The notes: generated by a model not told the origin, from the sequence alone. A stretch of DNA of 64,000 bases from an uncultured Candidatus Saccharibacteria bacterium (GCA_964585475.1 CAZPDF010000001.1:1441-65440), one strand, 5' to 3'. Positions 9,002-28,092 are shown, counted from the stretch's first letter. Numbers and translations: made by a program.

Positions 9002-9038
9002 AAAAACGAATACGCCACCCGGGTGGCGTATTCGTTTT
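9002..9038. terminator. bidirectional intrinsic terminator
   Basis: aaaaacgaatacgccaccc / gggtggcgtattcgtttt forms a perfect long hairpin with an A run and a T run on either side. Confidence 0.75.
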
Positions 9039-24502: not shown

Positions 24503-25051
24503 ATGAAAGGCCCCGAACAAGAACGACCCAAACCAAGTAAAGGGATCGTACCGGAAAAAGGTAAAGAGTTTCCGGTTGTTGATATAATCAAAGGAAAAAT
24601 TGGAGAGATGATCGACAAGCAGATAGGAAAGAAAACAGGGATAGACGTAAAGAAAATATTAGAAGCGGCCAAGCCCCCGATAATGCATGCGGCAGAAGGT
24701 GAAACTGCTGAAGGTGGAACCGAGGGAATTATGGAGAAAATTCTTAATAATCCTAAAGCTGTTCGTGCGGGAGCAGCAGTCACGCTTGCTGCGTTAGAGA
24801 GATGGACGAGATTTTGGTCAACTTTCATGGAACCGCCCATACCAGGTTTTCTTAAGTCTAAAGAGGAGAAAGAGCAGGAAAAGAGAGATAAGGAGGGCGG
24901 TGGCGAAACCTTTTTGGAACAAGCCCGCAGGTACTATGAGTTTGGCGGCCGGCTGGAAAACGCCGTACTTAAAGGGGAGTGGGATGAACTTCTAAAGAAA
25001 AAGGCGACAGCTAGAAAGGGTGGTGGAATTCCTGATGGCAAAGCCGCCTAG
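24503..25051 (+). CDS. hypothetical Lys/Glu-rich protein
   Basis: 182-aa ORF with no recognisable motif. Confidence 0.55.
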   Translation: MKGPEQERPKPSKGIVPEKGKEFPVVDIIKGKIGEMIDKQIGKKTGIDVKKILEAAKPPIMHAAEGETAEGGTEGIMEKILNNPKAVRAGAAVTLAALERWTRFWSTFMEPPIPGFLKSKEEKEQEKRDKEGGGETFLEQARRYYEFGGRLENAVLKGEWDELLKKKATARKGGGIPDGKAA

Positions 25052-25120: not shown

Positions 25121-25162
25121 TCTGCCTATAAGAAGATATTGTCGGCTATAAATCCGCGTATT

Positions 25163-25196
25163 TCTATTCTAATGTTCTTAAGAATTTGAGAATAGA
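25163..25196. promoter_or_regulatory. imperfect copy of the ArsR operator palindrome, overlapping the ArsR stop codon
   Basis: tctattctaatgttc-ttaa-gaatttgagaataga. 12 of 15 arm positions pair. The left half matches the half-site of 25450..25481. Confidence 0.4.
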
Positions 25197-25433
25197 TATT
25201 CCGGTGGAAGTAAGTTTGTGCCGGATTGAAGTTCCATCCGACCGCTTCATTAAAAGACCCGCAATGCCAAGCCGCCGTATATGTTCCGAGATGGTTTTGA
25301 AGTTTACGTCAAGCTTCTCGGAAATTTCCGAAACCGAAAGTTCCGGCTCCCGCCCCAGGAGCTGCATGATCTCAATTCTTCTATGGTTCGCGAATCCCTT
25401 CACGATCCGCTCAAGTTCCCTTGTCTTTTTCAT
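25164..25433 (-). CDS. ArsR/SmtB-family transcriptional regulator
   Basis: 89 aa. FANHRRIEIMQLLGREPELSVSEISEKLDVNFKTISEHIRRLGIAGLLMKR is a winged-HTH ArsR pattern. Confidence 0.8.
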   Translation of the reverse strand: MKKTRELERIVKGFANHRRIEIMQLLGREPELSVSEISEKLDVNFKTISEHIRRLGIAGLLMKRSDGTSIRHKLTSTGISILKFLRTLE

Positions 25434-25449
25434 TCCTTTTTATGATACT

Positions 25450-25481
25450 TTATTCTAATATTCTCAAGAATATTAGAATAA
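25450..25481. promoter_or_regulatory. probable ArsR operator (perfect 14-bp arms, 4-nt spacer)
   Basis: ttattctaatattc-tcaa-gaatattagaataa, located 17 nt upstream of the ArsR start codon. Confidence 0.6.
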
Positions 25482-25563: not shown

Positions 25564-28092
25564 TTATTTCAGGTCCTCGGAGGACAATGAAAACTCGCTC
25601 CCCGGTTTTATCTCGCCCTTGATGATCTTATCGGCGATTTCTTTTTCTATTTTGTCTTGAATAAAGCGCTGCATCGGCCGCGCGCCAAAAGCCGGATCAT
25701 ATCCGCCTTTCGCGGCCGCATCAACCAATCCGTCCGTTATTTTTAAAATTATATTCTGTGATTTCAAGCGCGATGTCAGTTTCTCGAGCATCAGGCGCGC
25801 GATTTTCTGTAATACCTCTTTGCCGAGCGGCCTGAAAATAATTACGGCGTCAAAGCGGTTCAAAAGCTCCGGGCTCATTATTTTTTCTTTCTGGATATAC
25901 TCGATGATTTGCCGCTCCATGCTTGAGGGATCTTCTCCGCGGTTGGTTAGTTCCCAAATAAGTTGGGATCCGGCGTTGGAGGTTGCAATAATGATGGTGT
26001 TTCGCATGTTCACGCGCTCTCCCAAGTAGTCTGAAAAGAAGCCCTCATCCAGAACCTGCAGGAAGAGGTTTTTTACTTTGAGGTTTGATTTCTCAAATTC
26101 ATCCAGAAGTACCACGCCGTAAGGATAGGAGCGGATTTTGCTTGCTAAGATTCCCGGCTCGTTTTTCTCAAAAGATCCGAGAAGCCGCGTTACGTCCTCA
26201 TCTGTTTGGAACTCGGTCATGTCTAGTCGCACCGTGGCTTCCTCGTTTCCGAAGTAGCTCTCGGCGAGCGCCTTGGCGGTCTCTGTTTTTCCGACGCCGG
26301 TTGGCCCCAGAAAAAGAAAAGTGCCTATGGGACGCTTCGGATTTCGGGTGCCCGCGCGCGCGCGGCGGACGGCATCGGCAATCGCCTGGATCGCCATTTC
26401 CTGATCAATTACTCGCTTGTGGAGTATATCTTCGAGAGCAAGCAGTTTCTCCTTTTCTTCTCCCGTAATTTCCCCAAGCGGCATTTTGGTTTTTCGTTCT
26501 AGGATGGCAAGCACTAGCTCCGGTCCCACCATGAATATTTTTTGGGCAACCGCCTCATTCGCTACTTCCTCCAATAAATCAACCGCGCGTTTGGGCATGG
26601 CGCCGGTAACAAGGAAATTTGTTGCGCCTTCACCTATTTTCTCAAGCGCGGGGTAAGTGAAGATAATTTTTCCTCCGCGTGAGGCCTCGGTTGCCGGAAT
26701 TATGTCCTCCAGAATTTTAAATAGTGCGTTTCCGGCCGGCTCCGCAATTTCAATTTTGGAAAAATGTTCCATCAGGCCCTTATTCGTTTCGAGGATTCTC
26801 CGGAAAGGCAGGGTGTCTGCGAGAGCAATAATATGAATATCTGAACTTCTAAGATAAGGCTGTAGGAGTTCATTTGCGCTAATACCTAAAGCCGTGAGGG
26901 AGGCGGTAAATTCCGGGAATTCGTCTATGGCGAGTATTATGTTCCCGGCCTTTACAGCTTCGTTTAGCAAGCGGAGGAGGAGTGACTCTGTTTCTCCTTT
27001 GGTTTTTCCGGAGGCGACAACGCCAGAGCCAAATAGTTCAAGAATGCGTTTGTGTTCAAGTTCCGGGAAAATGTTGCCGTGCGTAATCATCCGCGTAAGC
27101 CCGAGAAGAATTGTTCGCTTGCCTGTGCCGGGTTCCCCCACCAGAACCAGGTTTGCCCCGGATTTTTTAAGAAGGGAGGATTCAAGAAGTTTGATCTCGC
27201 GATCGTGTCCGATAATTTCTTCTTCGGCCCCCAGCGCTTCATAGGCGAGGTCTCTCGCAAATTTTTCAAGAAAGGCCGTGTGTCCGTACGCCCAGTCTTT
27301 GGCAAATCCCGGAATGCGGCCCAGCCTGACCCTAGTCCACCATCTGCGTTTTGCATCACCTTGCGAAAATTTTTCTTCCTGCCATTCGGCCGCCCCGCGC
27401 AGGGTAACTGGCGTTACGCCATTGGCCATGAGGTAATCGCGGAACGGCTTGGATGTTTCAAAAAGGGCCGTCATGAGGTTGGCGAAAGTTATATCCTTAT
27501 CGGCGTCAATGTTTTTTTCAAGATAGCCCAAGAGGGTATTGATATTTCCGTCTACATCGCCGGCCGAAATAATGGTTTGCAGGAGATTTTTATATTCTTC
27601 GTTTTCAACTCCAAGACGCCAAATAAGTTCCTGGCCGATATCGGTCCTGGGCAGCGTTTCAAATAATCGAGATAGGGTTATTGTGCCGGCGGGGGAAGAT
27701 GCGCGGTACCAAACCTGGGCCGCATATAAATTTAAGCGGCACAAGATATTGGAGTGCGGCGCTTCTCCTGGTTTGTCGGCGGTCTTTGAATTGAAAAACC
27801 CGTCAAGCGCCCCAAGGAGTAGACGCGGGGCGGTGAGAAGAAATAAGGCCCCGATCAAAAAATTTTGATCAATTCCCGGTATCTCCGTCGGCAGTCGGAT
27901 CTCTATGCCGTATGCATGCGTTCCCGCGACCTGCCGCGCCAGCAGAGAATAAAAAATTAGCGCGAGGTTAACCAAAACCATTTTGTCAAGAACTCGCGCG
28001 ATGGAATTTCGAAAACGGCGCGGGAAAACGTTTTCAAGGGCGAGCGCCCCGATGAATTTATTTTCGAAGATGTGGGGATAAGGCGTAGGCAT
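25564..28092 (-). CDS. membrane-anchored double-AAA+ Clp/Hsp100-family ATPase
   Basis: 842 aa. The N-terminal ~110 aa contain hydrophobic helices. D1 has Walker A GEPGTGKRT and Walker B ILAIDEF. D2 has [15 protein letters not shown] and VVLLDEFEK, and a C-terminal ARPMQRFIQ. There is no ClpB-type middle domain. Confidence 0.8.
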   Translation of the reverse strand: MPTPYPHIFENKFIGALALENVFPRRFRNSIARVLDKMVLVNLALIFYSLLARQVAGTHAYGIEIRLPTEIPGIDQNFLIGALFLLTAPRLLLGALDGFFNSKTADKPGEAPHSNILCRLNLYAAQVWYRASSPAGTITLSRLFETLPRTDIGQELIWRLGVENEEYKNLLQTIISAGDVDGNINTLLGYLEKNIDADKDITFANLMTALFETSKPFRDYLMANGVTPVTLRGAAEWQEEKFSQGDAKRRWWTRVRLGRIPGFAKDWAYGHTAFLEKFARDLAYEALGAEEEIIGHDREIKLLESSLLKKSGANLVLVGEPGTGKRTILLGLTRMITHGNIFPELEHKRILELFGSGVVASGKTKGETESLLLRLLNEAVKAGNIILAIDEFPEFTASLTALGISANELLQPYLRSSDIHIIALADTLPFRRILETNKGLMEHFSKIEIAEPAGNALFKILEDIIPATEASRGGKIIFTYPALEKIGEGATNFLVTGAMPKRAVDLLEEVANEAVAQKIFMVGPELVLAILERKTKMPLGEITGEEKEKLLALEDILHKRVIDQEMAIQAIADAVRRARAGTRNPKRPIGTFLFLGPTGVGKTETAKALAESYFGNEEATVRLDMTEFQTDEDVTRLLGSFEKNEPGILASKIRSYPYGVVLLDEFEKSNLKVKNLFLQVLDEGFFSDYLGERVNMRNTIIIATSNAGSQLIWELTNRGEDPSSMERQIIEYIQKEKIMSPELLNRFDAVIIFRPLGKEVLQKIARLMLEKLTSRLKSQNIILKITDGLVDAAAKGGYDPAFGARPMQRFIQDKIEKEIADKIIKGEIKPGSEFSLSSEDLK

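Follow-up and report, generated by a model that had tools for sequence, protein, structure and literature searches.

Is a perfect palindrome in front of a small regulator gene that regulator's own operator, and if so, what are its relatives elsewhere in the same DNA for? The question arises in a 64,000-nt stretch of DNA from an uncultured Candidatus Saccharibacteria bacterium (GCA_964585475.1, CAZPDF010000001.1:1441-65440), which we call the window. A preliminary description of the window had pointed to such a palindrome upstream of an ArsR-type gene, to a relative of it in a tRNA-Gly islet, where it was thought to let the regulator control an islet gene, and to a third, imperfect copy.

Three related palindromes in the window

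The three sites, none of which is assigned to a strand, are as follows.

25450..25481: palindrome P1, with a 28-bp core at 25452..25479; read from the sequence and from an inverted-repeat scan
17696..17733: palindrome P2, with its core at 17701..17728; read from the sequence and from an inverted-repeat scan
25160..25199: 3' palindrome P3, with its core at 25166..25193; from an inverted-repeat scan

P1 reads TTATTCTAATATTCT-CA-AGAATATTAGAATAA, with perfect 15-bp arms around a 2-nt centre, and it ends 17 nt from the ATG of the regulator gene. P2 reads ACAACATTCCAACATTCT-CA-AGAATGTTGGAATGTTGT, with perfect 18-bp arms, each made of two tandem CAACATTC units, and the same 2-nt CA centre as P1. The preliminary description had both sites in the right place and had correctly called them perfect, but it gave P1 14-bp arms and P2 17-bp arms, each with a 4-nt spacer. 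For P1 the arms are longer because the T and A of the supposed spacer, tcaa, pair too. The close relationship claimed for the two sites is real. They have in common a 28-bp core, ATTCYAAYATTCT-CA-AGAATRTTRGAAT, and differ at two positions per arm; the differences are mirrored in both arms, so that each site is still perfect. The general motif of the sites is 13-2-13, ATTCYNNNNTTCT-NN-AGAANNNNRGAAT.

P3 is less regular. Its inverted repeat is 83% complementary, the arms of its core pair at 10/13 positions, and the core is identical to that of P1 at 24/28. It overlaps the TAG stop (25164..25166) of the regulator ORF, and its core ends on the first base of the stop.

The 28-mer pattern had 0 matches in 100 dinucleotide-preserving shuffles of the 64-kb window, and the 12-nt half-site, with one mismatch allowed, had 6 matches in the window against 1.8 expected. 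Pattern and inverted-repeat scans of the window found no further full copies. With 3 copies in 64 kb, the sites do not have the high copy number of REP- or MITE-like elements, nor did we find conserved flanks, target-site duplications or a linked RAYT transposase. The terminator scan did not call P1, P2 or P3, which have AT-rich stems and no T run.

The regulator gene and its protein

The regulator gene and the elements around it are listed here.

25164..25433 (-): regulator gene, for an 89-aa winged-helix protein with an ArsR/SmtB fold ("family A"); Pfam HTH_5 and a fold model
25442..25447 (-): candidate -10 hexamer TATCAT, 4 nt past the P1 core; read from the sequence
25452..25457 (-): alternative -10 candidate TAGAAT, inside P1
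25090..25123 (-): intrinsic terminator, 15-bp stem then T run; terminator scan and inverted repeat I8

The gene is monocistronic in the window. Upstream, a clpB-like gene ends at 25564; downstream, the terminator, which lies about 40 nt after P3, ends the regulator transcript, and the gene beyond it (24503..25051, +) is convergent. Neither candidate -10 hexamer has a good -35. TATCAT belongs to the same 4-nt offset class that holds a perfect TATAAT in two related loci (L020 and L068), and either hexamer could serve as the -10.

The assignment of the gene to the ArsR family in the preliminary description was confirmed. Pfam HTH_5 (PF01022) matched the protein with 38.2 bits against a cut-off of 22, and a profile search against the PDB gave HlyU (2e-8), then CadC, CzrA and other ArsR/SmtB structures, as well as AspA (2e-5). 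No NCBIfam model reached its own cut-off: HTH_metalloreg fell slightly short (50.9 against 55) and the BigR equivalog model far short (26.2 bits against 155). The AF2 model, a monomer with a pLDDT of 91.6, has the topology α1-α2-α3-αR-β1-β2-α5, with helices at residues 2-14, 17-28, 34-41 and 45-57, strands at 61-66 and 69-74, and a last helix at 76-88. Foldseek placed this model closest to CzrA (TM 0.90, rmsd 1.2 Å), with CzrA, CadC and SmtB all at TM 0.83-0.90 and AspA at 0.74. As modelled, the protein carries the ArsR/SmtB fold with its C-terminal dimerisation helix.

Metalloregulators of this family sense their metals through cysteines in α3 or α3N (ELCVCDL) or through a His/Asp/Glu site in α5. 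The 89-aa protein has zero cysteines, and therefore the cysteine-based sensor sites are absent; the ELCVCDL motif has become ELSVSEI. Its α5 (TGISILKFLRTLE) has no His, no Asp and no metal ligands, which leaves neither kind of sensor site in the protein. The protein is therefore a DNA-binding module of the ArsR fold in which no sensor can be recognised.

The upstream site in family A

Relatives of the protein are widespread. At E ≤ 1e-5 they amount to at least 1,674 protein clusters with identities of 65-88%, nearly all of them from Patescibacteria MAGs, and in a collection of species-representative genomes the relatives occur in 399 stretches. The C-terminus LKFLRTLE is near-invariant. For the comparison, 80 family A loci were taken from the species-representative genomes with protein patterns that excluded the C-terminus. 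Upstream sites were scanned for as TTCT-NN-AGAA cores with arms at least 10/13 complementary.

A palindrome lies just upstream of 60/71 orthologous genes, and 43 of these palindromes are perfect (13/13). We then looked for -10 hexamers (at least 5/6, with A2 and T6 required) within 34 nt downstream of the upstream site. They were present at 37/62 loci, compared with 13/62 on the control side; 18 were a perfect TATAAT and 16 had an extended TG, and on the control side 2 were perfect. The offsets from the palindrome cluster at about 16 nt and about 4 nt, with P1 in the latter class. At the offset of about 16 nt, the outer TTRGAA of the upstream site falls at -35. These fixed offsets place the upstream site on the core promoter, so that most of it is not transcribed.

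The inner part of the upstream site varies. In the 80 loci it is mostly TAATG, CAATG or TCAAA, and four family A loci (L061, L063, L048, L072) nonetheless have CAACA-type sites. Solo sites, those away from a gene of the regulator type, thin out with distance, from 1.3 per 10 kb within 500 bp of a family A gene to 0.06-0.1 beyond 5 kb, and the sites are concentrated within 2 kb of the gene.

ArsR/SmtB operators typically have arms of about 12 bp and a 2-bp centre and sit on the promoter, and the 13-2-13 site, to which the protein is predicted to bind, has this layout. The proposal that P1 is the operator of the ArsR gene gains from the comparison, since most orthologues have this palindrome at the equivalent position, where it overlaps the promoter. 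P1 is very likely the regulator's own operator, and autoregulation through P1 is well supported as an inference from these positions.

No wider regulon came into view. The neighbourhood of family A genes is loosely kept (Mur ligases at 9 loci, dnaX at 7, rsmI-like at 6, DUF4015 at 6), and downstream genes are co-directional in 80% of the orthologous loci. Pfam scans of 49 and 38 genes beside sites gave a heterogeneous collection with no recurrent family and no coherent regulon, and we rejected a conserved regulon on these grounds.

In the closest relatives (L095-L101, 81-87% identity), the regulator gene has an aspS/asnS-like tRNA synthetase gene on one side and scpA-scpB, the kleisin partners of SMC, on the other. 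In the window it lies between the clpB-like gene and a terminator, and so the bracketed gene has switched neighbourhood at short evolutionary distance. Adjacency to scpAB is confined to one small clade. When two sets of neighbours from the 80 loci were scanned, the genes beside palindromes and the clusters of recurrent neighbours, scpAB did not figure among the families that recur.

The site at the 3' end of the gene

P3 is made of the last nine codons of the regulator gene (ILKFLRTLE), which encode the end of helix α5 (residues 76-88), and the first base of the TAG stop. The tail codons ATT CTN AAR TTC TTR AGA ACA TTR GAA, followed by the T of the stop, spell the site motif. We compared synonymous codons in the tail of 74 orthologues with those in the body of the same genes, and the Fisher p values ranged from 1e-15 to 1e-45.

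Arg AGA: tail 74/74, body 20%
Phe TTC: tail 73/74, body 40%
Leu(-5) TTR: tail 73/73, body 39%
Glu GAA: tail 74/74, body 58%
Thr ACA: tail 49/51, body 25%
Ile ATT: tail 62/62, body 47%

The constraint does not end with the last codon. The 3' palindrome runs past the stop, and the stop co-varies with codon -10 (xCT with TAG, xTT with TAA, xTC with TGA): 36/71 genes have a palindromic pair of the two, where 24.1 are expected (p=3e-5). TAG is the stop in 62% of family A genes. There are also lineages in which residues are altered and the site is perfect, as in ILMFLRTLE and ILTFLRMLE. The arrangement in which two sites bracket the gene, with one of them in the last nine codons and stop, is kept in hundreds of related genomes. 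The copy in the window is among the most degenerate of the 3' copies, and there a terminator follows it.

From the codon and stop choices we conclude that P3 is constrained at the nucleotide level and does not echo P1 by chance. The preliminary description was right that a third copy is present at the ArsR stop and that it is imperfect, but by leaving it as an incidental copy it undersold a family-wide element.

We also considered the 3' site as a promoter of the downstream gene and rejected this, as -10 boxes follow the 3' site at 21/74 loci, which is no excess.

Joint evolution of the paired sites

The two sites of a gene evolve together. In each genome, the upstream half-site corresponds, in symmetrised form, to one half of the gene's own 3' site, either the left (ILKF) or the right (RTLE-stop). 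In three loci (L018, L040, L065) the upstream site repeats the 3' site almost exactly and is not palindromic, and in four (L002, L040, L043, L065) the stop codon and a few flanking bases have been copied into it as well. Upstream and 3' cores are identical at 23.8 of 28 positions within a locus and at 22.6 between loci, a difference that 0/20,000 permutations reached.

In 60/66 loci the two cores are 266-341 bp apart, with an overall median of about 302; in the window the distance between P1 and P3 is about 290 bp. We found no helical phasing of this distance (Rayleigh p at least 0.18), and therefore no support for a rigid loop.

The sites are also more symmetrical than their conserved part. 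Inner positions 5-9 differ among the sites of one genome, with both arms shifting together, and the arms extend on average 4.6 bp past the core, where 1.07 are expected and the permutation maximum is 1.6. Perfection beyond the conserved core is not predicted by simple operator selection, and it raises a separate question. The ATTC boxes form two direct 8-bp repeats (NNNNATTC) per arm, ATTC-N4-ATTC-N4-GAAT-N4-GAAT, and the extra symmetry may come from two dimers that occupy these repeats at each site. It may also come from cruciform formation, or from mutations that perfect quasi-palindromes, combined with gene conversion between the two sites of a gene.

A paralogous family with the same arrangement

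A metagenome scan by DNA pattern alone gave at least 120 loci. Among them we found a second winged-helix (wHTH) subfamily, family B, of about 90 aa, with a C-terminus of ...FMKTF or ...FIKTFQHS and a match of 78 bits to the window protein. Family B genes are bracketed by two sites as well, 304-350 bp apart, in another reading frame, and their stop is inside the site, either as TAA at core positions 5-7 or as a central TGA when position 5 is C. This independent recurrence of the bracketing argues that the site at the 3' boundary is functional.

The change at core position 5 of the family B 3' site toggles the end of the protein (loci L107-L205, e.g. L136:2387-2680 and L200:709-1086). With T at this position the site reads ATTC|TAA and the protein ends in ...TF. 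With C it reads CAA CAT TCT TGA, which adds the QHS extension and puts the stop at the palindrome centre.

The recognition helices of the two families are near-identical (NFKTISEHIRRL in family A, NFKTIS[EQ]HTRRL in family B), which makes cross-binding plausible. One contig (L127) carries both family A and family B. In the 64-kb window, an HMM search of six-frame translations found no family B gene or pseudogene.

Solo sites and P2

Among the matches listed in the metagenome scan, 102 pattern-selected sites had enough flank to be classified: 37 are at a wHTH gene and 65 (64%) are solo. By crude gene calls, 50/64 of the solo sites among the matches listed are intergenic, and most are 0-110 nt from a start codon. 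The genes beside them, again among the matches listed, are functionally heterogeneous and include some variable-region types (RhuM, Fic, GIY-YIG). The preliminary description had reasoned that a palindrome at many unrelated intergenic positions would be a generic repeat or terminator and no operator. Across metagenomes such positions are indeed common, given the solo share of 64% among the matches listed, but the low copy number per genome and the systematic link to wHTH genes speak against the generic repeat.

P2 matches the commonest type of solo site exactly, with the inner variant CAACA, and as the relative of P1 that it was proposed to be, it is a genuine site of the same motif family. 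Identical copies of 38-41 nt are found in unrelated metagenome contigs, where the similarity stops at the palindrome. Its role next to the islet gene is another matter. Within the tRNA-Gly islet, P2 sits in a gap of 346 bp without coding sequence. It is 217 nt ahead of the ATG of 17951..18268, which is above the usual distance of solo sites. Homologues of that gene in four independent contexts have no palindrome upstream. With the CAACA variant as a further point against it, the proposed control of 17951..18268 by the regulator found no support, and neither did P2 as a regulatory site of this gene. The product of the gene is real and has 31 homologous clusters.

The inner variant bears on which protein P2 belongs to. 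Among the matches listed, CAACA or TAACA is found in 39/50 family B upstream half-sites and 150/210 solo half-sites, and in just 4/22 family A upstream half-sites obtained with the same search pattern. P2 could then be an operator of a family B paralogue encoded elsewhere, and not of the 25164..25433 protein, with P1 and P3 staying with family A. The usual family A variants (TAATG, CAATG, TCAAA), the contig on which both families occur and the exact 38-bp copies of P2 in many contigs all fit this. However, the window has no family B gene or pseudogene, the recognition helices of A and B hardly differ, and the four family A loci named above use CAACA-type sites themselves. We regard this as a possibility worth keeping in mind, though an unlikely one.

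Several other origins for P2 were tried and rejected. As a relic of a decayed wHTH gene, it gave only the motif in tblastn with family A and in the family B HMM search, and six-frame translations of the window hold no wHTH gene or pseudogene beside it. Known RNA families at P2 and in the islet produced only chance matches to microRNA hairpins, far under threshold. For a phage origin, we searched 2.9 million viral contigs in IMG/VR with the degenerate 28-mer; there were 7 matches, none palindromic and none beside a wHTH gene.

The tRNA-Gly islet

The region after tRNA-Gly, 16200..18400, has a G+C of 0.43-0.44, compared with 0.47-0.56 in the flanks, and holds small hypothetical genes only. We found no integrase in it, and the tRNA-Gly 3' end has no direct repeat, so an att-like repeat that delimits the islet was rejected. 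An islet is therefore plausible and not demonstrated. We noted the following features in it.

16783..16814, 17637..17668 and 18287..18318: copies of a 32-nt direct repeat (TTTTTTTATCCAAAACTYGGYAC...), one after the terminator of each of the three small islet genes; P2 starts 28 nt past the second copy
16851..16922 (-): tRNA-like gene, 42 bits with Rfam and missed by ARAGORN, with the anticodon loop UUUGGUA
17055..17028 (-): perfect promoter of the tRNA-like gene, TTGACA-16-TATAAT
16849..16816 (-): terminator of the tRNA-like gene, with a 15-bp stem
17674..17679: -35-like TTGACT, 16 nt before P2
17734..17835 (+): segment directly after P2 that folds at -40.1 kcal/mol (z=-3.7 against shuffles) and ends in a terminator-like GC hairpin and T run at 17809..17830
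17951..18268 (+): gene for a 105-aa protein of a conserved family (31 clusters, 58-73% identity, some members 176 aa)

The anticodon of the tRNA-like gene is possibly UGG (Pro). The mechanical ORF 16527..17090 encloses it and is thus unlikely to be a true gene. Rfam had no match to the segment after P2, which might encode a small RNA or belong to a leader or 3' UTR. Homologues of the 105-aa protein (L081-L087) adjoin an rve integrase, a tRNA or a GIY-YIG gene, and these neighbours suggest that it is a hitch-hiking accessory gene.

Elsewhere in the window, near the tRNA-Val genes, there is a perfect 36-bp palindrome without a spacer at 9003..9038 (AAAACGAATACGCCACCC/GGGTGGCGTATTCGTTTT). Its sequence is unrelated to P1 and P2.

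Proposed mechanism and alternatives

The reading we prefer, with a probability of roughly 0.65, is that a sensor-less dimer of the ArsR/SmtB type has the 13-2-13 palindrome as its cognate site and uses P1 for autoregulation, P3 as an auxiliary operator and P2 as a solo operator. It builds on the sequence elements and their conservation, on their position relative to -10 boxes, on the nucleotide-level constraint at P3 and on the fold. The 89-aa protein would bind as a dimeric winged helix. P1 would lie over the -35 and spacer of the gene's own core promoter, where bound protein would exclude RNA polymerase, and so we infer repression, that is negative autoregulation, rather than activation. P3 would be a second operator about 290 bp away, so that the gene is bracketed; its role is most likely auxiliary, either in a loop with P1 or as a roadblock at the junction with downstream genes. 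P2 would be a target either of the 89-aa protein or of a paralogue whose gene lies elsewhere in the genome. What speaks against operators is that a protein 65-88% identical across deep lineages has no coherent regulon, and that the palindromes are perfect over a greater length than one dimer should read.

The palindromes could instead act as nucleic-acid structures, either as DNA cruciforms or as RNA hairpins with a part in transcript stability, processing or termination, and the wHTH link would then be secondary. Symmetry that is kept at non-conserved positions 4.6 bp past the core would agree with this, as would a 3' palindrome that crosses the stop with covariation and solo copies between genes. 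However, imperfect sites have no excess of G.U-compatible mismatches on either strand, and the upstream sites, on the -35 and spacer of promoters, are mostly not transcribed with the gene. An RNA loop would need more than the 2-nt centre, the stems are rich in A and T, and none of P1, P2 and P3 has a T run; for termination the window uses canonical GC-rich hairpins, one of them 40 nt after P3. The strict tie to two wHTH subfamilies points to a protein partner. We think that structure as the main function is improbable.

We give little credence to the idea of a dispersed, possibly mobile palindromic repeat or cassette boundary, in which the unit of site, wHTH gene and site, along with the solo copies, is spread or homogenised by recombination. 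The solo sites beside unrelated genes such as RhuM, Fic and GIY-YIG (64% among the matches listed) would fit, and so would the position of P2 in a low-GC islet beside a tRNA and the different neighbourhood of the wHTH gene in L095-L101 and the window. The five loci in which the upstream site copies its own 3' site, including the stop and flank (L002, L018, L040, L043, L065), look like gene conversion. But the copies resemble one another only within the palindrome, without longer conserved flanks or target duplications, and away from the gene they are sparse (about 0.06-0.1 per 10 kb). The sites have no linked transposase or recombinase, no palindromic match turned up among the 2.9 million viral contigs, and the neighbourhoods are those of housekeeping genes (Mur ligases, dnaX, rsmI-like, DUF4015).

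A chromosome-organising or centromere-binding factor of the ParB/parS or archaeal AspA kind, with the clustered palindromes as loading sites, is very improbable. In its favour, the sites cluster within 2 kb of the gene, both the sequence and the fold searches returned AspA, scpA-scpB immediately follows the gene in the closest relatives, there is no coherent regulon, and the spo0J gene of B. subtilis likewise contains a parS site. Against it, no partner ATPase is linked to the gene, the classical repressors CzrA, CadC and HlyU outscore AspA, the sites are placed on promoters with a -10 box at fixed offsets, and scpAB adjoins the gene in a single small clade and does not recur in the two neighbour sets scanned from the 80 loci.

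All three of these readings, structure only, mobile repeat and centromere, are less well supported than the operator reading. Within the operator reading, we tentatively put forward a broader proposal, with slightly more doubt than belief: families A and B would be near-universal in Patescibacteria, with an operator written into the gene's own 3' end, and the concerted bracket would be an autoregulatory module that gates downstream genes. If this is true, the bracket is self-contained, working by a loop or a roadblock, and the C-terminal dimerisation helix and the choice of stop have been shaped by the protein's own DNA recognition.

Significance

Patescibacteria (CPR) have tiny genomes and, to our knowledge, few transcription factors. 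In the literature searched we found no experimentally characterised CPR regulon. A widespread wHTH protein with a computationally defined DNA site would allow targets to be predicted in any CPR genome and tested in vitro without cultivation. The dual coding is of wider interest, as a C-terminal helix, its synonymous codons and the stop are all under constraint from a DNA element that the protein itself most likely binds. It is relevant to the joint evolution of regulatory sites and coding sequence where genomes are compact.

Comparison with known systems

An ArsR-type autorepressor with a palindromic operator is textbook knowledge. We found no description of this protein-palindrome pair in the limited full-text literature that we searched.

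SmtB/ArsR repressors use 12-2-12 inverted repeats that lie close to, or across, the point where transcription of the regulated gene begins (PMC8790569). The present system resembles SmtB, CzrA and CadC in its fold (TM 0.90 to CzrA) and in having an inverted repeat with 12-13 bp arms and a 2-bp centre on the promoter (PMC8790569), and we expect a homodimer here too. It differs in that the regulator has no α3N or α5 metal site, no cysteine and no linked metal-resistance gene. The polarity of the half-sites is TTCT..AGAA, compared with TGAA..TTCA in SmtB, CzrA and CadC, and the sites are perfect and longer. It also has the proposed extra operator inside the regulator's own 3' coding end.

HlyU, BigR and SqrR include the best profile match (HlyU, 2e-8), although their sensing cysteine pair is absent here. 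The SqrR site has the spacing ATTC-N8-GAAT. SqrR, a member of the ArsR family, reads an ATTC half-site (bioRxiv 10.64898/2026.05.15.721447). ATTC is the invariant box of our motif as well, but the boxes occur here as two direct 8-bp repeats per arm.

AspA, the centromere-binding protein of the Sulfolobus plasmid pNOB8, is likewise a small ArsR-like wHTH protein (E 2e-5, TM 0.74). It binds a palindrome upstream of its own gene. In contrast to AspA, the gene here is chromosomal, with housekeeping neighbourhoods, no ParA- or ParB-like partners and sites on promoters.

Intragenic sites that cooperate with or supplement a promoter-proximal site also have precedents. Auxiliary operators are found inside genes as lacO2 in lacZ and galOI in galE, and in B. 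subtilis a parS site lies inside spo0J, the gene of the protein that binds parS. Unlike these, the site described here consists of the last nine codons and stop of its own gene, its synonymous codons are frozen superphylum-wide, and the arrangement recurs in a paralogue in a different reading frame. What is apparently new is the combination of a sensor-less subfamily that spans a superphylum, a gene bracketed by two concerted sites, and a site that is carried by the last nine codons and the stop.
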